From Nitrospirota bacterium (GTDB lineage Bacteria; Nitrospirota; Thermodesulfovibrionia; Thermodesulfovibrionales; UBA1546): 64,000 nucleotides of DNA. The stretch is taken from positions 5,553 through 69,552 of the forward strand of contig JAKALU010000003.1 in the NCBI GenBank assembly GCA_021824065.1, given 5' to 3'. Position numbers and translations under genes: made by a program. The notes under the pieces were generated by a model that worked only from the letters and a program-made list of their open reading frames with translations, ran no database searches and had not been told where the DNA came from. Shown in pieces: positions 2,877-61,612 of the stretch; within the stretch, counting starts at the first letter, position 1, and each line of letters opens with the position of its first letter.

Positions 2877-3932
2877 TTAATCAAAATGCGTTGCAGTTTG
2901 AGACAAAAGATAGGTTCTTAGATTGGTTTTTTTACTATAGATACCAAGCTTCTTTCTTATGGTTTGTCTGTGAGATTTGACCGTCTCTAAAGATATGTTT
3001 AACATTTCTGCTATCTCCTTGCCCTGTTTCCCCTCCTTTATTAGATTGGCTATCTGGATTTCTCTTGGGGTAAACCCTAAATGTTTAGAAGATAACGTAA
3101 GTGAAAACGGAGAAGTAATCTCATTCAAATTTGATTCAAGAATATCCCAGTAAGCAAAGGCTTCTGCTCCTGATCTGCTCTTCTTCAGTTTTTCTACGTA
3201 GGGCAGTATCAGGTTTTTAACATTTAACAACACCACATCTTCGACTGCTCTCTTTTCATCCTCCACCTGGCCCAATAAAACCTTCAGGGCAGTATTGCTT
3301 TCCATGAGTTCTCTGGACTGAACCCGAAGCTTTTTCTCCGATTCCAAGAGTGCATCTTCCGCGAGCTTACGTTCTACAACACCCGCAAGCGTGTCGGCAA
3401 TCGAAATCAGGAATCCCTCCTCTATTTGATTTCTGGAATGCCCTTCTCTGATGTAGATGTTAATCACCCCGCGCGTCCTGCCTGCATACGTGATCGGGAC
3501 GCAATAGTGACCATGAGGGGTAATACCTCCAAATATAATCTCATGGCGGGCATCTAAACAATCAGCAAACTGCACCTCCTGAGTTGATGCCGCCTTCCCG
3601 CATAGACATTTACCAAATGGAACCCTTGCACATTCTATTCCTAATGGCTCGGGGATCCCGTTCTGTACCTTCATTATCAGGACATCTGGGTCGTTTTCAA
3701 CAAGGAATATGCAACCTTTTGATTCAAAGGTAAGCCACGAGATCGAAAGAATAAGGTCGAGTGCATATTTCAGGATTTTTTCGAGTGAATTATTTTCCAG
3801 AGAAAAGCGCAGGAGCGTATTTACCACGTTCTGGATATCGTAGTACCGCTGGATTTCTTCCAGTTCCAACTTGTGCTGGGTTACTGATTTTTCAAATCCG
3901 ATAATCTGCTGAGACATTTCTATATAATTCAT
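2877..3932 (-). CDS. GAF-domain / LuxR-type HTH transcriptional regulator
   Basis: 351 aa. The central GAF-like region contains GKCLCGKAAST. The C-terminal segment TPREIQIANLIKEGKQGKEIAEMLNISLETVKSHRQTIRKKLG is a classic LuxR/FixJ-type HTH. Confidence 0.85.
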   Translation of the reverse strand: MNYIEMSQQIIGFEKSVTQHKLELEEIQRYYDIQNVVNTLLRFSLENNSLEKILKYALDLILSISWLTFESKGCIFLVENDPDVLIMKVQNGIPEPLGIECARVPFGKCLCGKAASTQEVQFADCLDARHEIIFGGITPHGHYCVPITYAGRTRGVINIYIREGHSRNQIEEGFLISIADTLAGVVERKLAEDALLESEKKLRVQSRELMESNTALKVLLGQVEDEKRAVEDVVLLNVKNLILPYVEKLKKSRSGAEAFAYWDILESNLNEITSPFSLTLSSKHLGFTPREIQIANLIKEGKQGKEIAEMLNISLETVKSHRQTIRKKLGIYSKKTNLRTYLLSQTATHFD

Positions 3933-45011: not shown

Positions 45012-46868
45012 TCAGTCCGTAACCTCTAAAAGCTCTCTGCCTTCCCTTATCTGTTCGAAGGTAGTAATATCAATGCCTTTATCTTCGAAATATTCTTTTT
45101 CTACGATCTCGATGTAAAACCTATCAAGTCCGCTATTCTTAAGAAAGTCCTCTCTTAAATTTATATCTTTTTTCTCTACGATTATCGGCAGAAGATGATT
45201 GAGATAGAACGATTCTTTCCTGAGGTCTAAGAGCGCCTTCTCAAATAGCTTTTGAGGCACTTTCCTCGCAAAGCCCTCTTCAGCAAGTTCTCTCCCTATG
45301 TCCTCTCTTATCTCATCCCTCCCCTCTTTAGTATTAAGCCGGGGATAGAAACTGCGCATCCTTTCCTTGAGCGCACCATGCACATGATGATAGAGCCTTT
45401 CTTCATCTCTGATCATTTTCAGTTCAGCAACCACATCCCTCAGGGATGCATCTCCTGCAGAGACTTTTGTAATCCCTTTTGATATAGTATTAATCTTTTT
45501 CCTGCCATAGGCTGTTATATATTTGTTGCGAAGGAGCTCTTTTACAGCTATCTCATCAAAAAGTCCTCTGTCGAGTTTATCAAACTCCTTTTTATTGCCT
45601 ATAAGGCTCCTGAGAGAATCCTCTGTGAAATCCACATTCTCCATAAAAGCTATCTGACTCAGTAATGCCTGGACGTTATCGTACCTGTCAAAGTATGTGA
45701 CTATAGAGCTGAACTCTTCAAAGATACTGAAATCATTTGTTTCACGTGCAATCTCATCACATGCCTTGCCTGTATCGAGGAGTACCTGTTCAAAGCCCAT
45801 ATCACTATGAGAATGTGCCCTGTGTTTTGCCTTTACCAGCCTCACTATATCTTCATTTATTATGTGTTTCTTCAGAGACGGGTCTTTAAAAAAGAGGTTT
45901 TCGAGTATTGATCTGGCCTCCTTGAGATATTCAGGCTCTTTTATCTCCTGTAACTTTTTGCCTCTGAGCAGAAGTTCATCAAGCGTATCGAAAAGGACAA
46001 TCGGGATATTGTTCCTGATGCTCAGGGTTCTCAATCTCCTCAATCTCGCAACCTCTGAAAGTTCGAGGCTGTCTTTAGAGATACTGTTGAGAAGGATATC
46101 CCTGTATTCATCAACCACACGCCTGTTCTCAGGGTGTTTGTACATTATGTCAATCTTCATCCTCTCCTGCTGATAGTTGTCTATTTTATATCTTGCCACT
46201 ATGTCTTCAAGATAAAGTTCTTCCTGCGGTGTCAGCGCCCTTTCATTAGAATAAAATTTTTCAAATGCTCTGTAGAATTCTCCATTTTCCTTGTGGATTA
46301 TCTCAAATATGAATACCGTTGATTTTTGCTCATTCAATTCGCTTATAAAATCGTTCATCAGTTCTGTATCTTTACCTTCCCCAATAAATTCTGTCCTTTT
46401 CAGAAACTTCCCAACAGACCTTAATATCTGTTTCTGCCGTTTTTTGTATTCGCCCCTGAAATCTGAGGACACAAAGAAATAATAGTTCTTTACTGCATTG
46501 CCCTGGAGGAAAAGCCTGTAGAATAATTCGCTGCCTTCGGTATCGTTTGTAAATACAATACTCTCCTCCTCGTCGAGAAACGCACCAAACATGATCAGCC
46601 TGTTGGAAACCTCTCCTTTTATCATGTCCTTCAGCGGTTTTTCTACACCAAACATATATTCGCAGAAACTTCCGCCTGTGCCTTTATAATGGATGCCCTC
46701 TTTAGAGATGGTGAATTCATTCCCCTTTGAGAAAAATCTTATATGGAAAGCTGTTTCTTCATAGAAATATGTACTCTCAACACTGGCTCCACCTACAAGT
46801 GCAAAGAACTCAACTGGTCCGAGATTCCCATGAAGCCTGAGGTCCTTAATCATATAAAAATATAACAC
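45012..46868 (-). CDS. Large conserved hypothetical cytoplasmic protein
   Basis: 618-aa uninterrupted ORF with no motif I can name. The likely start is MIKDLRL at 46853. Confidence 0.55.
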   Translation of the reverse strand: MLYFYMIKDLRLHGNLGPVEFFALVGGASVESTYFYEETAFHIRFFSKGNEFTISKEGIHYKGTGGSFCEYMFGVEKPLKDMIKGEVSNRLIMFGAFLDEEESIVFTNDTEGSELFYRLFLQGNAVKNYYFFVSSDFRGEYKKRQKQILRSVGKFLKRTEFIGEGKDTELMNDFISELNEQKSTVFIFEIIHKENGEFYRAFEKFYSNERALTPQEELYLEDIVARYKIDNYQQERMKIDIMYKHPENRRVVDEYRDILLNSISKDSLELSEVARLRRLRTLSIRNNIPIVLFDTLDELLLRGKKLQEIKEPEYLKEARSILENLFFKDPSLKKHIINEDIVRLVKAKHRAHSHSDMGFEQVLLDTGKACDEIARETNDFSIFEEFSSIVTYFDRYDNVQALLSQIAFMENVDFTEDSLRSLIGNKKEFDKLDRGLFDEIAVKELLRNKYITAYGRKKINTISKGITKVSAGDASLRDVVAELKMIRDEERLYHHVHGALKERMRSFYPRLNTKEGRDEIREDIGRELAEEGFARKVPQKLFEKALLDLRKESFYLNHLLPIIVEKKDINLREDFLKNSGLDRFYIEIVEKEYFEDKGIDITTFEQIREGRELLEVTD

Positions 46869-49631: not shown

Positions 49632-50285
49632 TTACAGCTTAATCAAACCCTTTGCAATTGCAAATTTTATAAGCCCTGCGCGGCTGTGTATGTCAAGCTT
49701 CTCGGAAAGATTTGTCTGATGAGCGATAGCTGTTTTTGCGCTTATTCCGAGGATGTCTGCTATCTCCTTGTGTGTATGCCCTTCTGCTATCAGTTTTAAA
49801 ACCTGCTTCTCCCTATCTGTTAGAATCTCATAAGGGTCTTCCGTTGTTTTGCCCCTCTGGATGCCACGATATTCATCAATAACACTCGCTGCAATGGATG
49901 GATGTAAATATGCCTCTCCACCGGCAATGGCTTTAATTGCGGTTATGAGGTCTATTCCAACGGCCCTTTTAAGCATGTATCCGGACGCCCCTGCCTTGAG
50001 AAAGCGCTTTACGTACTCTTTGTCTTCGTATTGTGTTAGAACAAGCACCTTTGTATTAGGGTCGATTTTTTTAATCTCTACAAGTGCCTCCAAACCTCCG
50101 AGTTTTGGCATTGCTATATCCATAAGTACAACGTCGGGCTTGAATTTCTTGACCCCTTCTATGGCCTCTATCCCATCAGCAGCTTCTCCGACCACCTCTA
50201 TATCGGATGACATTTTAAGAAATGCTGCAATACCTTCTCTCACCAGCGCATGGTCGTCTGCGATCATCACTCTTATCTTAGACAT
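49632..50285 (-). CDS. NarL/LuxR-family response regulator
   Basis: Start set to MSKIRVMIADDH at 50285, 2 nt after the kinase stop. REC domain (DVVLMDIAMP) followed by a LuxR HTH (LTDREKQVLKLIAEGHTHKEIADILGIS). Confidence 0.9.
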   Translation of the reverse strand: MSKIRVMIADDHALVREGIAAFLKMSSDIEVVGEAADGIEAIEGVKKFKPDVVLMDIAMPKLGGLEALVEIKKIDPNTKVLVLTQYEDKEYVKRFLKAGASGYMLKRAVGIDLITAIKAIAGGEAYLHPSIAASVIDEYRGIQRGKTTEDPYEILTDREKQVLKLIAEGHTHKEIADILGISAKTAIAHQTNLSEKLDIHSRAGLIKFAIAKGLIKL

Positions 50286-52110
50286 TCCTATCTCCAAGGG
50301 GTTCAAAAGGGATCCATAGGTTGATTCTTGTTCCGCTGCCGGGCTCAGAACATATCTGCAACCGCCCGTCCAGAAGATTTGCCCTCTCTTTCATGCCTAA
50401 TATACCAAGCCCTCTCCCATCCTCGGTACGTTTTAAGGCAGATTGCACATCAAACCCTTCGCCGTCGTCTTCTATATTAACGGCTATAGAATCGCTGAGA
50501 TATTTTAATATAACAAAAACATTTTCTGCTGCTGCATGTTTTGAAATATTCATTATGGATTCCTGTATTATTCTGAAAAATGTTGTTTCAATACGATAGC
50601 TGAGTCTCTGCTCCTCAACGCCCAGGACATTGAAAAAATATGTTATGCCTTTCTCTCCCAGATGTTTGTCAAGCAGCCACCTGATGGACGCCTCAAGCCC
50701 GAGGTCATCTAATATTGCAGGCCTGAGATTCTGGATTATATTGTGTATTCCATCGAGTGTGGTAAGCACGATGTTTTTCATCTCCTCTATTTTATCTAAA
50801 GGAGGGCTTTCAAGATACATATTGCACATATTAATCTTCATCAAAAGGGCTGACAATGTCTGCATTGTTTCATCGTGCAGACCCCGGGCTATCCTTTTCC
50901 TTTCATCCTCCTGAGCGGATATAACCTTTTTCAAAAGGTTTTGTACCTTCTGCTGGCTTTCCCTTATCTGTTTTGTCCTCTCGATTACCCGCTGTTCAAG
51001 TTCAACATTATACCGTTGAAGCCTTTCAAGTGAATCAGCCAGCTTGACACGCATAACTTCAAAGCTGGAGCTCAACATCCCGATTTCGTCTATTCCGCCG
51101 AACTCAATTGACTTCGACATATCCCCTTTTGCGATCTTGTGGGTAGCTCTAATCAGTTCATGCACAGGCTTTACTATGCTTTTGCTCATCCCGATTGCAA
51201 TTATCAGCGCAATCCCTATCGAGCCTATGCTGAAGGCCAAAAAAGTCTTTTTAAGTTTTGTGGCTGGCGCAAAGACATCTTTTTCCGGCTGAATTATAGA
51301 CACCCCCCAGTGTGCCATCTTGAGCGGGGCAAACGCCAGTATGTCTGTTGAACGGATAGTGCTGCTCCCGGTCTGTTTTTCCTTGTCAGAATGGCACCTA
51401 TGGCAAGTCCTGATCTCGGATCTTTTCTGTGCTATTAGATTTCCCAGAAACCTGTTATGGTCACTGCCTGTAAAAATCCTTTGGGGATTGTTGGACGCTA
51501 TAACAATGCCATGGCTGTCAACTATTTCCAGATAAGTATTAGGTTCTGTAGGCACTGCCTTAATAGTCTGGCCAATCCTGAGATTGGTGGGATCAATCTC
51601 TCCGCCCACCACACCAACAGTATCACCATTTTTATTTTTTAGAGGCACCAGAGCATATATAACCTTCTTTTTCATCGGCTCTACAGTGTATATATCTGAT
51701 ATCACGGGTTTGCCATCCAGAATAATTCTGTTTATATAAGGAATGCTCACAAGGTTTACATAGTTTTCAAACCTGGAAGGATAGCTTAAAACTATATTCC
51801 CTGTTTTGTCCAGAAGAAAAATACCATCTGTGAATATCGAATACCGATAGGCTGTTTTCAACGCCTCCTTTTCAGTCTCCCAGTCGTTGTCGCTTAGATC
51901 TACCTTTCCTGAAAGGGAGATATCATAAAGCCGGGTGAGGCTTCTCTCTAAAAGAAGGTCAATGTTATTCGCTATTATGCTGGCTAATGTCAGCCTGTTT
52001 TTCAATGAGCGGTCTATGGTTTCATCAACTGTTAAGTAACCTATTATCCCCAGACCTGTGGAAATGATAATTACATTGAGAATTATTGCAATAATTATTT
52101 TTTTCTGCAT
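50278..52110 (-). CDS. Sensor histidine kinase: periplasmic Cache-like domain bearing a CxxCH motif, then HAMP, HisKA_3 and HATPase
   Basis: 610 aa. TM1 at the N-terminus and TM2 at FLAFSIGSIGIALIIAIGM. CHRCH at residues 236-240 (nt 51391-51405). H-box RIARGLHDETMQTL. G-boxes DDGEGF and GLGILGM. Confidence 0.88.
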   Translation of the reverse strand: MQKKIIIAIILNVIIISTGLGIIGYLTVDETIDRSLKNRLTLASIIANNIDLLLERSLTRLYDISLSGKVDLSDNDWETEKEALKTAYRYSIFTDGIFLLDKTGNIVLSYPSRFENYVNLVSIPYINRIILDGKPVISDIYTVEPMKKKVIYALVPLKNKNGDTVGVVGGEIDPTNLRIGQTIKAVPTEPNTYLEIVDSHGIVIASNNPQRIFTGSDHNRFLGNLIAQKRSEIRTCHRCHSDKEKQTGSSTIRSTDILAFAPLKMAHWGVSIIQPEKDVFAPATKLKKTFLAFSIGSIGIALIIAIGMSKSIVKPVHELIRATHKIAKGDMSKSIEFGGIDEIGMLSSSFEVMRVKLADSLERLQRYNVELEQRVIERTKQIRESQQKVQNLLKKVISAQEDERKRIARGLHDETMQTLSALLMKINMCNMYLESPPLDKIEEMKNIVLTTLDGIHNIIQNLRPAILDDLGLEASIRWLLDKHLGEKGITYFFNVLGVEEQRLSYRIETTFFRIIQESIMNISKHAAAENVFVILKYLSDSIAVNIEDDGEGFDVQSALKRTEDGRGLGILGMKERANLLDGRLQICSEPGSGTRINLWIPFEPLGDRNV

Positions 52111-52159: not shown

Positions 52160-52900
52160 TCAAGTTGCCACCTTATCTTTCGGTATGCCCTCACCTTCTG
52201 AACCCTCAAGAGATATATTAAAAAGTCTTTCATATTCCAGAGGGTGTTCATGTATCATGCGTTCTTTTGAGATTTTGCCAGTAAAGATTACTGTATCTAA
52301 CGGGAATACCTCAGGGCTGAGTATAGAGTTATATATATGCCATAAAGCAACAATGAGAAAGACAAGGAATGCCTGATTTGTATGCAAGATCTTGGCGGTC
52401 GGGATAACCTCTCCGGGAAGGAATCGGGTAACAAGCGTAGGGAACCAGAGTGCCATCCCTGTTACAACCATCAAAAGCCCGCTGATAAGAACACCCCAAT
52501 ATTCAAACTTCTGCTTATAGTCATAGCGGTCACATCTTGCAGGATGACTTTCTATGCCAATGTAATACTTGATATTATGTATGGCATCAAGAAAATCCTT
52601 TTTGTTTATAATCATCGACGTCTGCCATTTCTTGAAGACAACTCCTATAATCCCGGCTATAATATGCACTGCAATAACAATTGAAAGGGCTATCCCTGTG
52701 TATCGGTGAATCAATCTTACATTGTCAATGCCACCTAACTGGAAAATAAACCACTGGGAAAGGGCAAGCGAATAGAATTTCTGAGAAAGTCCAGTTACAC
52801 CCAATATCCCGAGGGTTATTATAGTCATCCAGTGTTCAATAATGCGGGTGGTACTAAATCTTCTAATCTTGTCTTCCTTAATTATATTATCGCCTTTCAT
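52160..52900 (-). CDS. Dihaem cytochrome b, FdnI/HydC/PhsC-type (Ni/Fe-hydrogenase b-type cytochrome family)
   Basis: Start set to the ATG at 52898-52900, preceded by GAGGAGGG. RFSTTRIIEHW is the entry motif. Four TM helices with conserved His (HRYTG, VHI, ILH, WHIY). Confidence 0.8.
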   Translation of the reverse strand: MKGDNIIKEDKIRRFSTTRIIEHWMTIITLGILGVTGLSQKFYSLALSQWFIFQLGGIDNVRLIHRYTGIALSIVIAVHIIAGIIGVVFKKWQTSMIINKKDFLDAIHNIKYYIGIESHPARCDRYDYKQKFEYWGVLISGLLMVVTGMALWFPTLVTRFLPGEVIPTAKILHTNQAFLVFLIVALWHIYNSILSPEVFPLDTVIFTGKISKERMIHEHPLEYERLFNISLEGSEGEGIPKDKVAT

Positions 52901-52911
52901 TTGACCCTCCT

Positions 52912-54366
52912 CTATCTGGTAACCGCATAGCGCCATATATGTAACAATATCTGCAGGATCAACCCAATCATCGCAAAGGGGATAAAAACCCTGTATATCA
53001 GGCTAACAATAAAAACCATCGGAGCCCTTGTCAGGCTTGGTTTATAATGAGAGAGCCATGCATCCTGAAAATTTTCAGTTGCACCCTCATGACATTTCTG
53101 GCATCTCTTTGCCAGGTTTGCCTTTATTATTGCTGCATCAGAGCCTATGACACTGCTTATATTATGGGTGCCGTGGCAATCAGTACAAACAGCTATCTGC
53201 CTTGCTGGTTTGTAAAGCGTCTCTTTCTGTTTTTTGTAAAATCCCAAGGTAACTCCGTGAAAGTCCGAAAGATAGGTTTTTACAACATCAGTAGAAAGTC
53301 CGTACTTCTCCATAATCTCTTTGTTAGCGTGGCAGTTTCCGCATATATCGGGCACCCTCTCGCGGTAATCAGACGTTCGAGGGTCTGTTATGTTGTGCGC
53401 AGTGTGGCAGTCTATACATATAGGGACATCCTGAATGTGCTCGCTGATAAGCGCCTTACCATGAATGCTTTTTGCATATATCTCATATATTTCGGGGTGA
53501 CACCTCTGACACTTCTTTACAACAAAATTCTTCTCCTTTCCCCCGGGGGGTATCGAGTGAGAGCCGTGGCAGTCAGTACAGACAGGAGCCTTCAAGTTAC
53601 CCTGACTGAGCATTGTATAATGGATGCTTTCCATAGTTTTAGTATATTTATCAAAATGGCATCGCCTGCAACTCTCTGCAGAGGCAATGGCATAATCCCT
53701 CTTGGTCCTGAAGTTTCTCTGAGGGTGTTCTTCAGAGGAAAAGCCATAATGGCAGTCCGAACAGGTAAGTTTATTATGTACAGAGGCATCTATCAATAAT
53801 GCATCCACTTTAAGTGCTAATGTTTCGCCATCTTTAAAAACCATGTTTAACTTATGCCCGTGACAGCTCAGACAGTACTGTTTTTCAGAGGCAAATATTT
53901 TTCCACCCGCTACAGGCATAATTGAATGAGAACCATGGCAGTCAGTGCAAACATGTGACTTGTTTTCACTCTCTTCCCCCAGTAAACTGGCATGTATAGG
54001 CTTTGCACTGATCTGTTGATCTGTATGGCAATGCTTACATACAAGAGAAGATCTTATTTTATATTGCTTTTTGCTCCTGAATTTTCTTGCAGGGTGTTTG
54101 TCCGAGGAAAACTCATCGTGACAATCAGAACATGTCAGAGAATTATGAACAGAGGCTTTGAATTTTTCAGCATCCACATAAGCTGTTACAGATTCGTTAT
54201 TCTCAAATTTTTTGACTATCCCCAATTGTGCATGACACCCTAAACATTTCTGCGCTTCTTCCGAGAGAGCGGTATCTGCCGCACTAACGCTGTCAATAGA
54301 TATTATAAAAACCCAAAAAAGAGACAACAGAAAAAGGATTATTCTCTCCCCGCTCTTCATAGACAC
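52912..54366 (-). CDS. Membrane-anchored 13-haem c-type cytochrome
   Basis: 484 aa with a signal peptide. 13 CxxCH motifs counted. Residues of about 40-165 and 170-300 form a tandem 4-haem duplication. C-terminal TM helix MVFIVSLIYRVFIPFAMIGLILQILL. Confidence 0.9.
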   Translation of the reverse strand: MSMKSGERIILFLLSLFWVFIISIDSVSAADTALSEEAQKCLGCHAQLGIVKKFENNESVTAYVDAEKFKASVHNSLTCSDCHDEFSSDKHPARKFRSKKQYKIRSSLVCKHCHTDQQISAKPIHASLLGEESENKSHVCTDCHGSHSIMPVAGGKIFASEKQYCLSCHGHKLNMVFKDGETLALKVDALLIDASVHNKLTCSDCHYGFSSEEHPQRNFRTKRDYAIASAESCRRCHFDKYTKTMESIHYTMLSQGNLKAPVCTDCHGSHSIPPGGKEKNFVVKKCQRCHPEIYEIYAKSIHGKALISEHIQDVPICIDCHTAHNITDPRTSDYRERVPDICGNCHANKEIMEKYGLSTDVVKTYLSDFHGVTLGFYKKQKETLYKPARQIAVCTDCHGTHNISSVIGSDAAIIKANLAKRCQKCHEGATENFQDAWLSHYKPSLTRAPMVFIVSLIYRVFIPFAMIGLILQILLHIWRYAVTR

Positions 54367-54409
54367 CTCCTTCTTGAAATTAAGGCACGTTGAGAGAAAG
54401 CGGGCAGAC

Positions 54410-54442
54410 GGGGGGATGTCATGCCGAAGCTGACATCCCCCT
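54410..54442 (-). other. Intra-operon perfect stem-loop GGGGGATGTCA-tgccgaagc-TGACATCCCCC
   Basis: An 11-bp perfect stem in the 103-nt gap between the nrfD-like and 13-haem cytochrome genes. No T-run follows. Confidence 0.6.
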
Positions 54443-54469
54443 CGCCTAAATTCTGAGAACCGGACATAT

Positions 54470-55708
54470 TCAATGTGACTCCTTATATTCCGGGTGTTCT
54501 CTTATAACAGGCATACGGTTCAAAATCCATCTGAAGATGAGAATGTGAATAGTGATTATGGATGCAACAATAGCAACCTCCTGCCATGGCGGAATAATAT
54601 GGTGGAGATGACCCGGCAGATTCCAGTTGAATGCTATTATTGAAACATTGATCCTGTTTACTATAATCCCTAAGACAGCATAAAAGGCTCCGAACCTGAC
54701 AAGGCCAGCACTATTGTTTTTAACACCATATGTCAAGACAATAGCAGGGAGGAGAACGAACCCCAGTATCTCAACAAGAAACCAGTTCCCATAAGGGGTG
54801 CTCAGTAAGTGCCAGTTGTCATCATGGGCTACGCCAACTAACTTCAATGCGAGATAGACAAACAAACCGACACATGTACCTTTTCCAAGGCCAACGGTCA
54901 GTCTGTCAAGGCTTTCGAGGAAATTGTGGTCAGTGGCGCTTCTCAGAAACCGGGCTGCAAGGGTGCTGATAACAATTACCATGGCAAGGGCAGCATATAT
55001 GCTTGAGCTGAGGAAAAACACCGGTATATACGAGGAAAACCAGAGGGGATGGAGTTTTCCTGGAACGAGCAGGAACATTGCGCCGAGGGCAGACTGATGG
55101 AGTGTTGAAAGGATTATCCCGGCAATGGTCATGCCAATAACTATCATTGTTGCCCATTTATAAACCCTTCTTGACTTAATCCATTCCAGTATTGCCTCGC
55201 TGAATTCAAGGAACTGGACTGTAAGATAAGTGGCAACATGCCATGCAACGAGAAAAAGAACCGAGGCTGTGCCGAAACCGATTATCATAGGGTAATATAT
55301 ACGCCATGGCCTTCCAAGGTCGGTTAAAAGGTAAATTACAGCAAACAGGTAGCCCAGGAATCCTGTAAGGACTCCAAGTCTCACAAGGGGTTTGTATCTT
55401 TTAAAACCAAATATGTAATAGGCTGTCCCCATTACAAATCCAGTGGCTGAAAGTGGGACGCCACCAAAGAGTCCCCAGCCGAGTAAGATTCCCCATGGAT
55501 ATTCATTTGAAGCATGAGTAGCTGAAGCAAGCCCAAATACAAAACGGATAGCAATAACAGGGATGCCGATGCTCAATATAATAGCTGCAACGATATTGAA
55601 AGGAGTAATGAGTCTTCTGCTGTATTCAGGCCATGACATCCCCATAAGCAGTTTGTCCATAAACCATGATCTAAAGTTATCTGTTCCAGTTAATGTCCCG
55701 TTACTCAT
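54470..55708 (-). CDS. NrfD/PsrC-family polytopic quinone-interacting membrane protein
   Basis: 412 aa with about 10 TM helices. ATGA start/stop overlap with the upstream FeS gene. Its position next to a Tat FeS subunit is typical of the family. Confidence 0.8.
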   Translation of the reverse strand: MSNGTLTGTDNFRSWFMDKLLMGMSWPEYSRRLITPFNIVAAIILSIGIPVIAIRFVFGLASATHASNEYPWGILLGWGLFGGVPLSATGFVMGTAYYIFGFKRYKPLVRLGVLTGFLGYLFAVIYLLTDLGRPWRIYYPMIIGFGTASVLFLVAWHVATYLTVQFLEFSEAILEWIKSRRVYKWATMIVIGMTIAGIILSTLHQSALGAMFLLVPGKLHPLWFSSYIPVFFLSSSIYAALAMVIVISTLAARFLRSATDHNFLESLDRLTVGLGKGTCVGLFVYLALKLVGVAHDDNWHLLSTPYGNWFLVEILGFVLLPAIVLTYGVKNNSAGLVRFGAFYAVLGIIVNRINVSIIAFNWNLPGHLHHIIPPWQEVAIVASIITIHILIFRWILNRMPVIREHPEYKESH

Positions 55709-56715
55709 TTTTTCTCCTCCTCTTTTTCATGTTTTTGCCCTTTTTCCTTCTCCAAGTCCTCCCTGTGCCGCAGGGCTGCATATACCATACCGAAAAGGGC
55801 TGGCCAGACAGTAAATACTACAGGGACTGCGCCAAGAAATCCCTTTGTTTCTTCAATAAGTGGCTTTTGGGGAAGATTTGTCGGAAAGTCGAGATTCTCA
55901 AAGGGGACTCCAGAGATGTACATCCAACCCGTCCCTCCGGCTTCGTGTTCTCCATAAATATGGTCGATATACCTGTCAGGGTTTTTCATTATCTTTTCTC
56001 TTGCGATCTTGATTAAATCACTCCTCTTGCCAAATGTTATAGTCCCCACGGGACAGGCCTCTGCACATGCAGGGATACCGCCTTTTTTAATCCTGTCATA
56101 ACACATTACACATTTTACAATCTTTGGTTCCAAAGCACTATCATAATCATAGGCCGGGGCATAAAAAGGACAGGCTATCATGCAGTATCGGCACCCAAAA
56201 CATTTTTCCGGGTCATAGAGAACAGCGCCTTCAGGAGTTTTTGTATATGCGTGTATTGGACACGCAGAGGCGCAGGCTGGTTCGTTACAGTGGTTGCATT
56301 GTATTTTCCGATAAACAGGCTTGCTCTCATCCTTTGGATTTTTATACTGATTAACCACAGTGTAAGCCTGTGCAGTGGGTCTCCTTTTTTCTTTAAAAAC
56401 AGAAACGTCGTCAAATGAAGTTTTTGGCTTTGGGAGGTTATTTGCCTCATTACATGCCTTTTCACAGCTGCGACACCCTACACATGCAGTTAAATCAGTC
56501 AGACAGCCATAACGATTTGGCCAACCAGAGAATTCCTTTGAAGCAGCTACATCCTTATAGCTGCCGATGAGAACAGTACCTCCAATTCCGGCTACTGTTC
56601 CTAAAAATTTCCTTCGGCTGATTCCTCTTGCGTCACCTTCTTGAGGCTTATCTTCAGCGCTTTCTTCTGATATGCATTCATTAGCCACCACTGGATTTTT
56701 TAGTGGTTTATCCAT
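55705..56715 (-). CDS. Tat-exported 4x[4Fe-4S] ferredoxin-type subunit with a C-terminal TM anchor (HybA/NrfC/HmcB-like)
   Basis: Twin-arginine signal SRRKFLGTVAGIGG. Four Cys clusters: CVGCRSCEKAC, CNHCNEPACASACP, CFGCRYCMIACP and CVMC...CAEACP. C-terminal helix GAVPVVFTVWPALFGMVYAAL. Confidence 0.88.
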   Translation of the reverse strand: MDKPLKNPVVANECISEESAEDKPQEGDARGISRRKFLGTVAGIGGTVLIGSYKDVAASKEFSGWPNRYGCLTDLTACVGCRSCEKACNEANNLPKPKTSFDDVSVFKEKRRPTAQAYTVVNQYKNPKDESKPVYRKIQCNHCNEPACASACPIHAYTKTPEGAVLYDPEKCFGCRYCMIACPFYAPAYDYDSALEPKIVKCVMCYDRIKKGGIPACAEACPVGTITFGKRSDLIKIAREKIMKNPDRYIDHIYGEHEAGGTGWMYISGVPFENLDFPTNLPQKPLIEETKGFLGAVPVVFTVWPALFGMVYAALRHREDLEKEKGQKHEKEEEKK

Positions 56716-56757
56716 AATCCCTCCTTTAAAACATATTCAGGTCAAACCTGTTAGAAG

Positions 56758-57228
56758 TTATTTGCTGGTTTTCATGCTTACTTTCTGTTCCTTCTTATCA
56801 TGGCACATCTCAGTACAGCCCTTTGGGTCTATACCGACATTGCCCATCCCCCTGTGGCACTGGAAACACTGGCTGTGGTATGCAGCCTTGAGCCCTGGCA
56901 TATTTGGGTTTGCAGGGTCAAAGTTACTGTGACAATTTTTACAGGCCATAAAGTTATTAACTACTGAACCCTTGAAGGTAGATGGACTAACAGCATGGCA
57001 ATCTTTGCATGGCAGCGCCCCACTATTGCCATGCTGGTGGTGGCACATCCCGCAGTTGCCTGCTATCGAGATATGTTTTGCATGGTTGAATATCACCGGC
57101 CCATATTTGTCTGACAAACTGTCCAGCTTAACAAGACTCGGAGTCTTTGCAGAATTTCCTGCATAAAGAGATGCAGCAAAGAAAATGCAGAGACTAATTA
57201 CAAAGACTAAGATTCCTATCTTCCTCAT
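56758..57228 (-). CDS. Periplasmic class III (c3/c7-type) cytochrome, 4 CxxCH + 1 CxxxCH
   Basis: Start set to the ATG at 57228, preceded by AAAGGAGG. Has a signal peptide. Motifs are CGMCH, CKDCH, CKNCH, CFQCH and CTEMCH. Confidence 0.85.
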   Translation of the reverse strand: MRKIGILVFVISLCIFFAASLYAGNSAKTPSLVKLDSLSDKYGPVIFNHAKHISIAGNCGMCHHQHGNSGALPCKDCHAVSPSTFKGSVVNNFMACKNCHSNFDPANPNMPGLKAAYHSQCFQCHRGMGNVGIDPKGCTEMCHDKKEQKVSMKTSK

Positions 57229-57402
57229 TATTATCTGACCTCCTTTATACATGACTTAAATAACATTACTCAGGACTATTCGAAAGGGCATTCTTAAAAT
57301 CGCCCCTCATGCTCCATTTGCGAGCCGGAGGCGAAGCAATCTCAAAATAAAGGGATTGCTTCGTCGCTATGATCTCCTCGCAATGGTTTCTTAAATAGAT
57401 CA

Positions 57403-57810
57403 TTATTTGTTTTCACCTTTTTCAATCTCGGTTTCTTCCTTCTTGCCCTTCTTTTTACCAGCTAAATATGCCTCTGTGGGTCTCCATCCAAAGGATGCGC
57501 TTCTGCCCGCCAGTGACAGAACGCTGTTGATAGCTACTGTGCTGAGCGCAAACATAAAACTGAAAGGCAGGGCAATCACATAGGCCAGCCCAATAAACGG
57601 GGCAGCCGCTACCTTACCCATAGTCCTGAGCGTATCCTTATATCCTGTTTTCTTAATAAACTCTAAATCTTCCTTGCCGGAGTGTATCAAGGTCTTGAAA
57701 GGCCTGTGTTTCAATACCTCCCAGTAAATGATGTATCCTGCGATTGCCGAGACGGCTATAATGTACTCCACCCCCTTAACATGGGTCATGAAATCAAAAA
57801 GAGTATTCAT
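57403..57810 (-). CDS. Small membrane protein, paralog 1, ending in SFGWRPTEAYLAGKKKGKK plus an acidic tail
   Basis: 135 aa with a GGAAGGAGG RBS and two or three hydrophobic helices. The C-terminal motif is shared with 57889-58236. Confidence 0.65.
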   Translation of the reverse strand: MNTLFDFMTHVKGVEYIIAVSAIAGYIIYWEVLKHRPFKTLIHSGKEDLEFIKKTGYKDTLRTMGKVAAAPFIGLAYVIALPFSFMFALSTVAINSVLSLAGRSASFGWRPTEAYLAGKKKGKKEETEIEKGENK

Positions 57811-57888: not shown

Positions 57889-58236
57889 CTATGATGAATC
57901 GGTTGTCTTATCATTTTTCTTCTTCCCTTTTCTCTTGCCAGCTAAATATGCCTCTGTAGGTCTCCAGCCAAAGGATGCGATATTCCACATGCCTTTGAAA
58001 ATCTTTTCTGCCAGCAGTGATATCATCATCGCTATCGCTATGAACGGCAGAAATATCACATACAGCAGTCCCAGAATCGGTCCCAACAGTAACATAACGC
58101 TGGGTGGAAACCTGGTATACGTTGAATTCTTATCTCCTGGAAGCACCCCCTCATTTGGGATATCTATCCTGCCTCCATTCGATAAATCCCAGTAAGTCCC
58201 CTTTCCTACCTTATGTCCTCCGCTGTATTTAAGCAT
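57889..58236 (-). CDS. Small membrane protein, paralog 2, ending in SFGWRPTEAYLAGKRKGKKK
   Basis: 115 aa with a GGAAGGAGG RBS. The N-terminal soluble part is GKGTYWDLSNGGRIDIPNEGVLPG, followed by a TM hairpin. Confidence 0.65.
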   Translation of the reverse strand: MLKYSGGHKVGKGTYWDLSNGGRIDIPNEGVLPGDKNSTYTRFPPSVMLLLGPILGLLYVIFLPFIAIAMMISLLAEKIFKGMWNIASFGWRPTEAYLAGKRKGKKKNDKTTDSS

Positions 58237-58363
58237 CTTTTTTCACCTCCTTCCTCATCCTTGTATTTATTTCCCTGTTCATCTTGATTACAAGATAGCA
58301 GATATTAAAGGCTAATATAATTGGAAGAAGTTCCTAATTTTTATAGGGATTTTGTCTTAAATT

Positions 58364-58380
58364 AGCAAAGATTTTCCCGA
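58364..58380 (-). promoter_or_regulatory. Weak sigma-54-like element cGGgaaaatctTTGCt (GG-N10-GC)
   Basis: The minus-strand reading of 58364-58380 satisfies GG-N10-GC with TTGCT at -12, but matches poorly at the other -24 positions. It lies about 130 nt upstream of the 58236 start. A sigma-54-dependent regulator gene lies 2 kb upstream. Confidence 0.25.
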
Positions 58381-58435
58381 CACAGGGGAAAGTCGGATAA
58401 GTGGGTAGATTAATAACAATTTATTTGCAACTAAT

Positions 58436-58483
58436 GAAGCTTCCTGCAGCAAGTTGGGGAATGCACTCGCTGTGCATTCTCAC
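58436..58483. repeat. REP-like element GAAGCTTCCTGCAGCAAGTTG-GGGAATGCACTCGCTGTGCATTCTCAC (contiguous copy)
   Basis: Contains the hairpin GAATGCAC-tcgct-GTGCATTC. Both halves recur at 59038-59147. Confidence 0.7.
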
Positions 58484-58488
58484 AAAGG

Positions 58489-59028
58489 TTAGCGAAGCAT
58501 ACTATCTGCGACCTTTATCAGATCAAATGGAGGTGATTTCATTACTACTGTTACCCTGTATTTCCCTTCATCCCATGAAATCCGGCTGCACGGCTCATCA
58601 TTCTTACAGAGACCAACCTCGAGTACTGCATTTCTGCCTTTTAAAGGGTAAGTGACTTTTTCTTTAACCTGTAATATCTTTATTTTCTTATCAGGGACAA
58701 AATTTGCACCGGCAGCAACCTGAGATATTATAAGGGCAATATCTCCCCTCTCTCTATGTTTGAACTCCATTACTACTGCAGTGAAAGGTTTATTCTGAGC
58801 CAGTATTTCCGATGGAGGCCATGTAAAGTTTTGAGGGAAATATGACGGAACATATATGTTTTTGATATTTAATCGTAATCTGACTTCTTCAACACTGCTG
58901 TATCTTCTTATGGCATCCTTCTGAATTGCCATTGGCAACCAGTTAAGAATCTTTAAAACTGCAATCAGGATTACAACTGTTATTGCAAAATAAAAAAAAC
59001 TGAAGAATTTCCTATGCACTGTTTTCAC
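58489..59028 (-). CDS. Membrane-anchored hypothetical protein (single N-terminal TM, beta-rich ectodomain)
   Basis: 179-aa ORF flanked on both sides by the REP-like element. No motif was recognised. Possibly an accessory partner of the upstream M56-like protease. Confidence 0.5.
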   Translation of the reverse strand: MKTVHRKFFSFFYFAITVVILIAVLKILNWLPMAIQKDAIRRYSSVEEVRLRLNIKNIYVPSYFPQNFTWPPSEILAQNKPFTAVVMEFKHRERGDIALIISQVAAGANFVPDKKIKILQVKEKVTYPLKGRNAVLEVGLCKNDEPCSRISWDEGKYRVTVVMKSPPFDLIKVADSMLR

Positions 59029-59037
59029 TCCTCATAT

Positions 59038-59147
59038 TGAAGCTCTCTGCAGCAAGCTGCAAGGCTTCGAGATGTAAAAAACTATTCCTTCTTTCATATC
59101 CGCTCACTAATCCAGCAGCGGGAATGCGCTCGCTGTGCCTTCTCATC
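59038..59147. repeat. REP-like element, split copy (GAAGCTCTCTGCAGCAAGCTG ... about 55 bp ... GGGAATGCGCTCGCTGTGCCTTCTCATC)
   Basis: Both halves match 58436-58483, separated here by an insert. Confidence 0.65.
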
Positions 59148-60138
59148 ATACAATAAAATAGTTTATTATTGTAATTACAATAAATGTGACTATAAACTTA
59201 AACCATCCGCCGTCTTTTTCATGTGCCAATCCCTGTTCAAGCTGCATAATTCTATTTTTTATGAGCATATTATGGCTATACTCTTCGAGTGCTGCTCCTA
59301 TTTTTGAGGGTTTTGTAATCTGAACCGGGGCGATGTCTTCATGTGTATAGTAAAGTTTTTTAAGGGTCTCAATCAGCGCATAAGGTTTCCCTGTTAAAGT
59401 TACTGCGATGTTGTCACATATCTGTTCATCTTCCTGGACAATCTTTCTAAATTCTACAAGGACTATCGGGTTAAAGAACATCGATATCCTTAAAAGAAAG
59501 AGCATTAAGATTAAAGGCTGCCTACTCCTTGTAATATGGGCAATTTCATGGGCCAGTGCTGCCTGTATCTGTTCTATATTAAGCATTTTTACAAGGCCGG
59601 TAGATAGGAAGATTGCAGTATTCTTACCGGTTGTAGAAAACAATATAAAATCATTGTCATCAATTATAAAGATATCAGGTTTTTCCACAGGTAAAGACTC
59701 CAATGCCTTGCTGACAATAGAATTATCATCAGGGGTTTCCCCCTCGGATGTAGATTCTTTTGATTCGATGGTATGCCTCAAGATAGGGATTATCTCCTGC
59801 AAAAAAGATATCAGGGTTGTGATAAATAAAATAATAATAAACAGCAGGCTTAATGGAAACTTCCCCCATAATTCCAGACTCAGCCACCTGTTAATATCAA
59901 AAAGCGCTTCCAGTCTGAAGTAGACTGACCCTCTCCCAGAATTTATCGTTTGATATACTGGGAATGAAAGAATCGGGGATATAATGACTATATAACGAAA
60001 TCTCTGCTTTATTAAAGGATTGTTAATCTTCCATGCCTGAATGGATCTGTCCACTATAATAGCAGCTATTAACGCGTGGCATATTGACTGGGCTATATAC
60101 ATGCCAATATAGGAGTTGAAAAAGTTTGAGATGCTCAT
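59146..60138 (-). CDS. M56 (BlaR1-like)/M48-type membrane zinc metalloprotease homolog
   Basis: 330 aa. N-terminal TM helices, the HExxH motif in ALAHEIAHITRSR followed by a TM segment, and a C-terminal TM helix. Confidence 0.65.
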   Translation of the reverse strand: MSISNFFNSYIGMYIAQSICHALIAAIIVDRSIQAWKINNPLIKQRFRYIVIISPILSFPVYQTINSGRGSVYFRLEALFDINRWLSLELWGKFPLSLLFIIILFITTLISFLQEIIPILRHTIESKESTSEGETPDDNSIVSKALESLPVEKPDIFIIDDNDFILFSTTGKNTAIFLSTGLVKMLNIEQIQAALAHEIAHITRSRQPLILMLFLLRISMFFNPIVLVEFRKIVQEDEQICDNIAVTLTGKPYALIETLKKLYYTHEDIAPVQITKPSKIGAALEEYSHNMLIKNRIMQLEQGLAHEKDGGWFKFIVTFIVITIINYFIV

Positions 60139-60226: not shown

Positions 60227-61612
60227 TTAATGGTAAATTATCAGCCCGTATTTTTTCATCTTATTAAAAAGGCTCTTTCTGCTGATGCCGAGACGGGCTG
60301 CAGCATCCTTCCTCTTCCACCTCACCTCTGTTAAGGCATCTATTATCAGTTTCTTCTCCTCTTCTGATTTCACTGTCTCTATCCTGTCTTTTACCTTTAT
60401 CTCTCCATGCAATTTTCTACCTCTGCCTTCAGATATAAGTTCTGTTACTGTTTCACCTGTGATTAAGTCATTGTCTTCAAGGATTATCGCCCTTTGAATC
60501 AGATTCTCCATCTCTCTCACATTCCCGGGCCATTGGTAATTCAGAAAAAAACTTATTGCAGAGGCTGAAATGCCTTTAAATTTTTTCCCTATAGCCTTGC
60601 TATATTTTTTAAAAAAATAATCTGCCAGCAGCGGGATATCTTTTCCCCTCTCTCTGAGTGGCGGTACGTTAATCTCGAATACCTTTACCCTGTAAAAAAG
60701 ATCATCCCTGAACCTTCCCTCTGCAACAGCGGCATTGAGGTTCCTGTTCGTTGCAGATATCAACCTCAAATCAACTTTTATGGCTTTTGTACCTCCAAGC
60801 CGCTCTATCTCTTTATCCTGCAGCGCTCTTAAAAGCTTTGCCTGCAATCCCAGGGAAAGGTCTCCTATCTCATCGAGAAAAATACTGCCTCTTGACGCCC
60901 TCTCAAATTTACCTATATGCTGCCTTGTTGCGCCTGTAAAGGCACCTTTTTCATAACCAAACAGTTCTGATTCAAGCAGTGTCTCCGGAATTGCTGCACA
61001 GTTCACGCTTATGAATGGGTTGTCCCTCCTATCGCTGAGCTTATGTATGGCCTTTGCTATAAGCTCCTTGCCAGAGCCGCTCTCGCCGGTTATCAGAACC
61101 GTAACATCTGTTGCCGCAACCTTTTTCGAAAGTTCAAGCGCTCTCTTCATCTCATCACTCTCGGCTATTATCTCATCCTTAAGGGTTTTCTCAAGACTCT
61201 CTGTCTTAAGGGTCTCAAGCTCTCTCTGTAATTCATATCTTTCGATTGCCCTGTTTATAACTGTCCTTACGATTTCTATATCAACAGGTTTTGTGAAAAA
61301 GTCGTATGCCCCATATCTGATTGATCTCATTGCAAGCTCTTTTGAGCCGTATGCTGTTATCATTATCACAGGCATAGGATACCCTTCGGCCTTTATACGT
61401 TCAAGCACCTCGATGCCGCTCATACCGGGCATCTTTTCATCAAGGAGCACGAGGCTATAGCTATCATCTTTCAAAAAGCCAATGGCATCATGGCCCGTGG
61501 ATGCAATATCAAACTGAAAACCTTCTTTCCTCAGAAGTTCTCCAAGAAAGAACTGGATACTCGTGTCATCATCCACAATCAATATTTTATGCTCGTTTGT
61601 AGCAAATGCCAT
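60227..61612 (-). CDS. Sigma-54-dependent response regulator (NtrC family: REC + AAA+ + Fis-type HTH)
   Basis: 461 aa. REC (LVLLDEKMPGMSG), Walker A GESGSGKE, GAFTGA loop (EKGAFTGA), and C-terminal HTH AAARLGISRKSLFNKMKKYG. Confidence 0.92.
   Translation of the reverse strand: MAFATNEHKILIVDDDTSIQFFLGELLRKEGFQFDIASTGHDAIGFLKDDSYSLVLLDEKMPGMSGIEVLERIKAEGYPMPVIMITAYGSKELAMRSIRYGAYDFFTKPVDIEIVRTVINRAIERYELQRELETLKTESLEKTLKDEIIAESDEMKRALELSKKVAATDVTVLITGESGSGKELIAKAIHKLSDRRDNPFISVNCAAIPETLLESELFGYEKGAFTGATRQHIGKFERASRGSIFLDEIGDLSLGLQAKLLRALQDKEIERLGGTKAIKVDLRLISATNRNLNAAVAEGRFRDDLFYRVKVFEINVPPLRERGKDIPLLADYFFKKYSKAIGKKFKGISASAISFFLNYQWPGNVREMENLIQRAIILEDNDLITGETVTELISEGRGRKLHGEIKVKDRIETVKSEEEKKLIIDALTEVRWKRKDAAARLGISRKSLFNKMKKYGLIIYH

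Follow-up and report, generated by a model that had tools for sequence, protein, structure and literature searches.

A conserved Nitrospirota locus that probably combines two quinone:cytochrome c oxidoreductase modules with no substrate-converting enzyme

The window analyzed here is a stretch of 64,000 nucleotides (64 kb) from a Nitrospirota bacterium (assembly GCA_021824065.1, contig JAKALU010000003.1, positions 5,553 to 69,552). It contains a locus of about 11 genes which, judging from the encoded sequences, is probably a composite respiratory operon in which two quinone:cytochrome c oxidoreductase modules, devoid of any substrate-converting enzyme, are co-expressed as a unit. This locus is real, well conserved and uncharacterised, and it is widespread in uncultured Nitrospirota. 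It consists of known module types in an unnamed combination and is not a categorically new system. The six genes forming the two modules are the following:

57403-57810, minus strand: u1, an HmcD-like small membrane protein with an N-terminal HmcD helix and a C-terminal half resembling the neighboring protein u2
56758-57228, minus strand: cytS, a periplasmic 5-haem c3-type cytochrome of 156 amino acids with four CxxCH motifs and one CTEMCH motif
55705-56715, minus strand: FeS, a 4x[4Fe-4S] protein of 336 amino acids of the HmcB/HybA type, exported by twin-arginine translocation (Tat; SRRKFLG motif), with a C-terminal transmembrane anchor
54470-55708, minus strand: NrfD, a polytopic NrfD-family membrane protein (HmcC/HybB type; Pfam NrfD, E = 7.8e-19), whose start overlaps the FeS stop codon (ATGA)
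52912-54366 (or start 54360), minus strand: MHC, a 13-haem c-type cytochrome (13 CxxCH motifs) that carries a signal peptide and has a transmembrane helix at its C-terminus
52160-52900, minus strand: cytB, an FdnI/HydC-type four-helix dihaem cytochrome b (Pfam Ni_hydr_CYTB), located 11 nt after MHC

In a preliminary description of this DNA, made from the sequence alone, the five genes from cytS to cytB were presented as a tightly packed, co-directional run. This was borne out, as all five lie on the minus strand, three of their junctions measuring 42, 103 and 11 nt and the other being the ATGA overlap at 55705-55708, and the five subunit types proposed at that time were matched by motif and family evidence. 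Upon sequence inspection, ribosome-binding sites are visible (AGGAGG ahead of the cytS ATG at 57228), and the gene boundaries correspond to protein products already in public collections. The window is also 100% identical to contig DAIERR010000033.1 (assembly GCA_027346725.1). The five-gene run is the core of the larger locus, the coordinates of which extend on both sides: a sensor kinase and response regulator pair (49632-52110) and a set composed of an M56 peptidase, the protein p179 and u2 (57889-60138) are co-conserved with it, in the order M56-p179-u2-u1-cytS-FeS-NrfD-MHC-cytB-kinase-regulator. Relatives were sampled as one genome per GTDB species, with 570 returned and the best 80 analyzed. 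The gene arrangement is not due to chance, since another 36 species-level loci show this order too.

The two genes at the downstream end, MHC and cytB, form one unit, a 'bc'-type quinone module, because the pair occurs in each of the 87 loci for which enough sequence was available (tblastn synteny) and is fused into a single polypeptide of 694-719 amino acids in two metagenome-assembled genomes labeled as Gammaproteobacteria (L048 and L049). MHC is anchored by a transmembrane helix (residues 453-471) carrying His476; this residue and all 13 CxxCH motifs are invariant among 25 homologues. More than 120 MHC homologues were found at 59% identity or above, mostly in metagenome-assembled genomes of Nitrospirae and Thermodesulfovibrionales. 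A sequence search of the PDB returned only a weak match for MHC (28pb_A, 'Cytochrome c', identity not stated; E = 3e-6). Its AlphaFold2 model was discarded, with a predicted local distance difference test (pLDDT) score of 59.8, and a Foldseek search of the PDB with this low-confidence model gave no match at E <= 0.001.

For cytB, both sequence and structure comparisons lead to FdnI. The PDB sequence search matched FdnI with E = 1e-9, and the AlphaFold2 model (pLDDT 88.9) has FdnI (1kqf_C) as its best Foldseek match in the PDB, with TM-scores of 0.70/0.79. Across 83 sequences, four histidine residues are invariant: H23, H65, H173 and H188. The regions rich in Lys and Arg are the N-terminus, the 89-127 loop and the C-terminus, giving an N-in topology in which these regions are cytoplasmic; since this distribution fixes both termini and the loop on the cytoplasmic side, one cytB haem pair is located near each membrane face. 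In cytochromes of the FdnI type, electrons cross the membrane and reach a quinone site on its cytoplasmic side. The cytB menaquinone site is probably cytoplasmic as well, because conserved polar residues (R14, D102, D105, K131, Y134, H219 and E222) sit on the Lys/Arg-rich side of the protein.

The second module is of the Hmc/Nhc type. The preliminary description had grouped FeS, NrfD and the c3-type cytochrome into an Hmc-like unit; the likeness held, but the gene count did not, since the HmcD-like u1 lies upstream of cytS and brings this module to four genes. Among NCBIfam models, FeS matched HmcB first (411.8 bits, cut-off 420) and HybA second (213.8 bits), while NrfD matched HmcC first (423 bits, cut-off 550) and HybB second (186 bits). 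For u1, the HmcD model NF045712 gave 29.1 bits (cut-off 34) over residues 2-33, and an identical public protein carries the Pfam family PF28260 DVU_0533 (HmcD family); 34 u1 orthologues occupy the same position. Finally, cytS matched the NCBIfam models of HmcA (residues 424-541; 56 bits, cut-off 400), of the nine-haem cytochrome (residues 207-324; 51.6 bits, cut-off 640) and of TmcA. These matches place cytS on the last, C-terminal c3-like domain of both HmcA and the nine-haem cytochrome. Its four CxxCH motifs and its Cx4CH motif are kept in 36/36 orthologues, and five further histidines are conserved. Families of the c3/c7 type were also among the Pfam matches of these genes. Taken with the 'bc'-type MHC-cytB pair, the Hmc-like scores of FeS, NrfD and cytS uphold the earlier view that two different quinone modules are encoded here.

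FeS contains 18 cysteine residues, 16 of which are conserved among orthologues, enough for four [4Fe-4S] clusters, and a transmembrane helix at residues 293-311. It matches Pfam Fer4_11, and its best PDB match is FdnH (1kqf_B, E = 2e-34). Its own Tat signal is in line with HmcB, HybA and NrfC, which all possess one, their partners being Sec-exported cytochromes or separately exported proteins. NrfD has no CxxCH haem-c motif and a single cysteine; a PDB sequence search, profile included, returned no match for it. In one relative (L004, GCA_011772845.1, 8370-9781), the NrfD gene is broken into three short open reading frames, being intact in the near-identical locus L005; the split copy is either a pseudogene or an assembly error.

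Several characterized systems share parts of this design. Two classes of menaquinone:cytochrome c oxidoreductases are recognized, 'bc' and NrfD-type (PMC7327174). Regarding the first class, the MHC-cytB pair had been compared to a split CbcL. This comparison was abandoned in favor of two better analogues, the natively split Geobacter CbcBA and Desulfovibrio OhcA/OhcC, which are likened to MHC-cytB by published description and architecture. In Geobacter sulfurreducens CbcBA (GSU0594/GSU0593, Cbc5 cluster), the gene for an anchored multihaem cytochrome c also lies directly upstream of that for a HydC/FdnI-type dihaem cytochrome b, no catalytic subunit is present, a sigma-54 activator is encoded nearby, and a conserved His is found in the anchor helix of CbcA (Joshi et al.). 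CbcBA differs by its 7 haems versus 13 here and by the three reported His of CbcB versus four invariant ones in cytB. Its expression is sigma-54-dependent, with a BccR-like activator; no sigma-54 promoter consensus was found in the present locus. The partner genes are different, as the Cbc5 cluster further adds the cytochromes CbcC and CbcD and the membrane protein CbcE, and lacks FeS and NrfD; Cbc5 as a whole was rejected as a match. CbcBA oxidizes menaquinol near -0.21 V and is associated with the lowest growth yield; homologues have been reported in Anaeromyxobacter, and fused forms in Chloroflexi. When a 7-haem-linked cytB paralogue from the L053 locus was used as the query, no Geobacter-named protein appeared among the best 120 matches.

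The Desulfovibrio Ohc system (ohcBAC, DVU3143-3145) is likewise built from an FeS protein located in the periplasm, a multihaem cytochrome c and a membrane protein with haem b, has no cytoplasmic subunit, as is the case here, and is regulated by a sigma-54 enhancer-binding protein. According to its literature description, it contains 8 haems and lacks NrfD, c3 and HmcD-like subunits; in addition, FeS is translationally coupled to NrfD in the present locus, and not to cytochrome b. The closest solved relatives of FeS and cytB are E. coli FdnH-FdnI (1kqf), with the same four-His pattern and N-in topology. Here, however, there is no FdnG, FeS is paired with NrfD, and the helix packing on cytochrome b is probably contributed by the 13-haem cytochrome.

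As for the NrfD-type class, the nearest systems are Desulfovibrio NhcABCD and HmcABCDEF, in which HmcB-, HmcC- and HmcD-like proteins are combined with a c3-type cytochrome, the C-terminal domain of HmcA/NhcA being the part that cytS matches. Like this module, Nhc has no cytoplasmic subunit, and, like the whole locus, Hmc joins an NrfD-type subunit to a cytochrome b. The differences are the 5 haems of cytS versus 9 or 16, and the gene order, which is D-A'-B-C in the window. Compared with a full Hmc complex, there is no 16-haem HmcA, no NarI-type HmcE and no CCG-domain HmcF: MHC gave no match to the NCBIfam HmcA model, cytB, which is FdnI-type, gave none to HmcE, and no HmcF-like gene was found. 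The Hmc-like block is a reduced Nhc/Hmc, and the locus as found in the window looks like a relative of Hmc with a periplasm-facing bc pair in place of the cytoplasm-facing half. Geobacter Cbc4 (CbcSTU) and the NrfD-type oxidoreductases of ANME-2d also associate a cytochrome c, a 4x[4Fe-4S] protein and an NrfD-like protein with no catalytic subunit; however, CbcS is an anchored tetrahaem cytochrome of the NapC/NirT type and not a soluble c3-type one, and no cytochrome b module is present in the operon.

The preliminary description had invoked both Hmc and Qrc. While the first resemblance stands, with HmcB and HmcC scores just under their cut-offs and the match of cytS to HmcA, the second does not, as QrcC reached 71 bits (cut-off 400) and QrcD 61 bits (cut-off 570), with no QrcB/ActB-type domain. 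Alternative complex III (ACIII) was set aside as well, given a FeS protein of 336 amino acids with no MopB-like domain, and one NrfD gene where ACIII has two (ActC and ActF). The preliminary description could not match the five-subunit combination to a named complex; none with this composition was found here either, in a survey with incomplete literature coverage. The coexistence of two quinone-interacting membrane subunits in one system is, by comparison with known complexes, not unprecedented: Hmc and DsrMKJOP each pair an NrfD-type subunit with a cytochrome b, and quinone cycling has been proposed for them (PMC8076601).

It had also been noted that no catalytic subunit accompanies these genes. 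Indeed, comparison of the 49 open reading frames of the window with Pfam revealed no molybdopterin, NiFe or other catalytic gene in the 64 kb, and neither the 36 syntenic loci nor their flanks contain a molybdopterin or NiFe subunit. Similarly, no CCG/HdrD-like gene was found in the window or in the syntenic loci. These observations bear on another explanation, in which FeS-NrfD would anchor to the membrane a molybdopterin or NiFe enzyme whose gene lies elsewhere in the genome, and the cytochromes would be bystanders. Such pairs are known to anchor Psr, Dms, Ttr and Hyd-2, the best solved relative of FeS is FdnH, and HybA and HybB are the second-best NCBIfam matches of FeS and NrfD. Nevertheless, this explanation appears highly improbable: in addition to the missing enzyme gene, FeS has its own Tat signal, FeS-NrfD always occurs with a c3-type cytochrome and an HmcD-like protein, a signature of Hmc/Nhc, and the HmcB and HmcC scores are far above those of the Psr, Dms and Ttr models. 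Membrane anchors of the Psr/Dms/Ttr/Hyb kind were thus rejected, no catalytic subunit being found with FeS-NrfD in the window or the 36 loci.

The MHC-cytB pair occurs in Nitrospirota, Chloroflexota, Myxococcota and other phyla, with MHC haem counts of 13, 9-11, 14 and 9 in different clades. FeS and NrfD lie within 3 kb upstream of MHC in 36 further loci, are clearly absent from 27, and another 15 were too short to tell. The two modules are therefore separable, as many genomes, close relatives included, contain the MHC-cytB pair without the Hmc-like block. In a rough neighbor-joining tree built from MHC and cytB, every deep branch of the 13-haem clade has the block, and one nested Nitrospirota subclade (L006, L030, L036, L040, L051 and L052), to which the Ngb-4 genome belongs, lacks it; this pattern suggests that the block is ancestral in the 13-haem clade and was later lost in the nested subclade. 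A related gene set in another order was found in three Anaeromyxobacter loci, including that of the isolate A. terrae SG22. There, a sigma-54 activator is followed by FeS, NrfD, a protein joining an HmcD-like helix to a GcvH domain, a c7 trihaem cytochrome, another membrane protein with a GcvH domain, a u2-like protein, a 9-haem MHC, cytB, M56, p179, the kinase and the regulator. Since 36 loci and Anaeromyxobacter carry the block and the nested subclade does not, the comparison of these sequences indicates that the association of an Hmc-type module with a bc pair is old or recurrent, yet dispensable.

A few loci show additional features. In the two loci with fused MHC-cytB genes (L048, 3267-4619 region; L049, 10001-11344 region), the protein has a CbcL-like architecture and cytS-FeS-NrfD still lie upstream. 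In A. terrae SG22 (L081, 7600-9750), two membrane-anchored GCV_H-domain proteins and the c7 trihaem cytochrome stand between NrfD and MHC. A second cluster, MHC-cytB-MHC, is located beside the locus in L006 (14938-19021), and a 398-amino acid cytochrome with an MtrC/MtrF domain beside that in L004 (14967-16163). These extra cytochrome genes are a hint of extracellular electron transfer.

Based on these data, the following mechanism is proposed for the composite operon. In the first module, the 13-haem cytochrome would be anchored by its C-terminal helix to cytB, following the CbcBA/OhcA-OhcC design, with two b haems spanning the membrane and a menaquinone site on the cytoplasmic side. In the second one, the HmcD-like helix protein, cytS, the HmcB-like FeS and the HmcC-like NrfD would work together, with a quinone site assigned to the periplasmic side by analogy, given that subunits of the NrfD type, which lack redox cofactors, bind quinone close to the periplasmic side (PMC8076601). 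Both modules would transfer electrons between the menaquinone pool and periplasmic multihaem cytochromes, these electrons being ultimately extracellular or partner-derived. Their coupling would differ, however, one module exchanging protons on the cytoplasmic side and the other on the periplasmic side; since protons would be exchanged on opposite membrane sides, the locus would provide two differently coupled routes, probably for different redox potentials.

Several points weigh against this proposal. MHC has 13 haems when CbcA has 7 and OhcA 8, and the HmcB, HmcC and HmcD scores are all under the NCBIfam equivalog cut-offs. Furthermore, the sidedness of the NrfD site is borrowed from family members, no solved relative having been found by sequence. 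Finally, the gaps of 8-33 nt in many loci and the occurrence in a second phylum would fit a single complex equally well.

In such a complex, all subunits would form one Hmc/Dsr-like supercomplex, in which NrfD and the FdnI-type cytochrome b constitute a hard-wired redox loop. MHC/cytB would reduce menaquinone on the cytoplasmic side and NrfD/FeS/cytS would re-oxidize menaquinol on the periplasmic side, so that a potential drop between periplasmic cytochrome pools would generate a proton-motive force or, in reverse, drive uphill electron transfer. The conserved co-linearity, with NrfD-MHC gaps of just 8-33 nt in many loci, the apparently ancestral presence of the block in the 13-haem clade and the same component set beside the pair in Myxococcota are consistent with this possibility, as are the quinone sites, which we infer to be on opposite membrane faces, and the precedent of Hmc and DsrMKJOP. 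We nevertheless regard it as unlikely. Indeed, in many genomes, those of close relatives among them, the MHC-cytB pair does without the block, fusions join MHC to cytB and never parts of both modules, and, in the window, the two modules are separated by a 103-nt gap containing a stable hairpin:

54411-54441, minus strand: GC-rich stem-loop lacking a U tract, located in the 103-nt NrfD-MHC gap between the two modules

The computed folding energy of this hairpin is -23.5 kcal/mol. Comparable hairpins were found in about ten orthologous loci, while the gap is just 8-33 nt in other loci. A second stable stem-loop without a U tract (-11.6 kcal/mol) is located between u1 and cytS (57333-57362, minus strand). 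These two structures may lead to different transcript levels for sub-operons. Beyond them, the promoter and terminator scan gave nothing informative.

Related to this supercomplex is the idea that the locus operates as a self-contained redox loop with periplasmic cytochromes at both ends. Low-potential periplasmic electrons would enter through the 13-haem cytochrome and reach menaquinone at the cytoplasmic face via the two b haems; the quinol would then be re-oxidized at the periplasmic face of NrfD, and electrons would exit through FeS and the 5-haem cytochrome to a higher-potential acceptor. We hold this speculative scheme to be quite improbable. If true, energy would be conserved from a purely extracytoplasmic redox drop, which would help to explain how energy is gained when both donor and acceptor are outside the cytoplasm.

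Another question is the direction of the electron flow. The locus could function mainly inward, taking electrons from a periplasmic hydrogenase or formate dehydrogenase via c3, from a syntrophic partner or from a mineral. It would then reduce menaquinone to feed sulfate or sulfur respiration, as a substitute for Qrc/Nhc. The hosts are Thermodesulfovibrionales-type Nitrospirota, and cultivated Thermodesulfovibrio use a periplasmic hydrogenase and a formate dehydrogenase without membrane subunits, plus a canonical Hmc complex with a 16-haem HmcA and a CCG-domain subunit (PMC5165239). In addition, Nhc is described as a type I cytochrome c3:quinone oxidoreductase (PMC8076601), CbcBA has been proposed to run in reverse in Seep-SRB2 (PMC10553843), and an FdnI-type module is electrogenic in this direction, as established for Fdn-N. 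On the other hand, no dsr, apr or hydrogenase gene was found within the 64 kb, Anaeromyxobacter and Chloroflexota, which do not reduce sulfate, also possess the MHC-cytB pair, and cytochromes with MtrC/MtrF domains adjoin the locus in some relatives, a hint of outward transfer. A mainly inward function, although compatible with the composite operon that we favor, thus appears possible but doubtful.

The links between the quinone pool and extracellular or partner-derived electrons are poorly known in uncultured anaerobes, for which marker genes are scarce. The present locus is easily recognized and conserved among dozens of species of Nitrospirota, and the culturable Anaeromyxobacter has a rearranged relative of it. 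Its two quinone modules, which would be differently coupled, adjoin a putative haem-based redox sensor. Should the modules cooperate, the locus would represent a testable case of energy conservation, or of controlled dissipation, between periplasmic cytochrome pools. Otherwise, it would still be a useful marker and an extra variant among the Hmc/Nhc/Ohc/Cbc modular complexes.

The two modules are flanked by the following accessory and regulatory genes:

59146-60138, minus strand: M56, a zinc peptidase of the BlaR1 type, 330 amino acids (Pfam Peptidase_M56 and Peptidase_M48)
58489-59028, minus strand: p179, a membrane-anchored protein always paired with M56, with two conserved cysteines and no Pfam match
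57889-58236, minus strand: u2, a small protein with a single transmembrane helix and a C-terminal FGWRPTEAYLAGK motif, with no Pfam or NCBIfam match
50278-52110, minus strand: sensor histidine kinase (dCache-HAMP-HisKA_3-HATPase), whose periplasmic dCache domain contains a CHRCH haem-c motif at residue 236
49632-50306, minus strand: NarL/LuxR-type response regulator (Pfam Response_reg and GerE), pairing with the kinase
60227-61612: sigma-54 activator (Pfam), also adjacent in the Anaeromyxobacter loci

The accessory gene u2 is present as 54 copies in the loci, in tandem runs of 1-4, and stands immediately upstream of MHC in loci lacking the Hmc-like block, as well as in Chloroflexota and Myxococcota. 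Moreover, u2 and the C-terminal half of u1 are paralogous, with a common transmembrane helix and a C-terminal FGWRPTEAYLAGKKKGKK motif which belongs to no known family. The u2 protein is a candidate accessory subunit of the MHC-cytB module, as if a third subunit or an assembly factor. M56 and p179 are co-conserved beside MHC-cytB in Nitrospirota, Chloroflexota and Myxococcota; the HExxH motif of M56 (H197/E198/H201) is intact and conserved, and p179 has 43 orthologues that come after M56 in the loci. As for BlaI-type repressors, none was recognized among the neighboring genes that were examined.

The kinase is syntenic with the locus in three phyla, and response regulator orthologues, 60-72% identical, follow it in most loci. 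At the alignment column of the CHRCH motif, 26/50 kinase orthologues have CxxCH and 6/50 have CxxCK, the motif being lost in the rest. Judging from this motif, the kinase may be a haem-based periplasmic redox sensor, and it is a candidate regulator of the locus. A sigma-54-driven operon was not supported: a window-wide scan for sigma-54 promoters performed no better than chance, the stretch from p179 to MHC showed no -24/-12 consensus in 37 orthologous loci, and the weak candidate lying upstream of u2 coincides in part with a hairpin.

Beyond M56 and the sigma-54 activator, the genes are unrelated to the locus and encode ZapA, ZapB, a lytic transglycosylase and a phospholipase D-family protein. 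On the other side of the locus, a 618-amino acid open reading frame (45012-46868, minus strand) has no Pfam match. About 50 kb from the locus, a second large multihaem cytochrome of 737 amino acids (342-2555, minus strand), containing Geobacter-type CxxxxCH...CxxCH motifs and c7 domains, adjoins a GAF-LuxR regulator (2877-3932, minus strand). Finally, the 19-nt element GCACAGCGAGYGCATTCCC, which is itself part of a palindrome, is present in exactly two copies in the window, at 58457-58475 and 59120-59138 on the minus strand, against a chance expectation of about 0.01 matches; both copies are located just 3' of a stop codon, that of p179 and that of M56, respectively.

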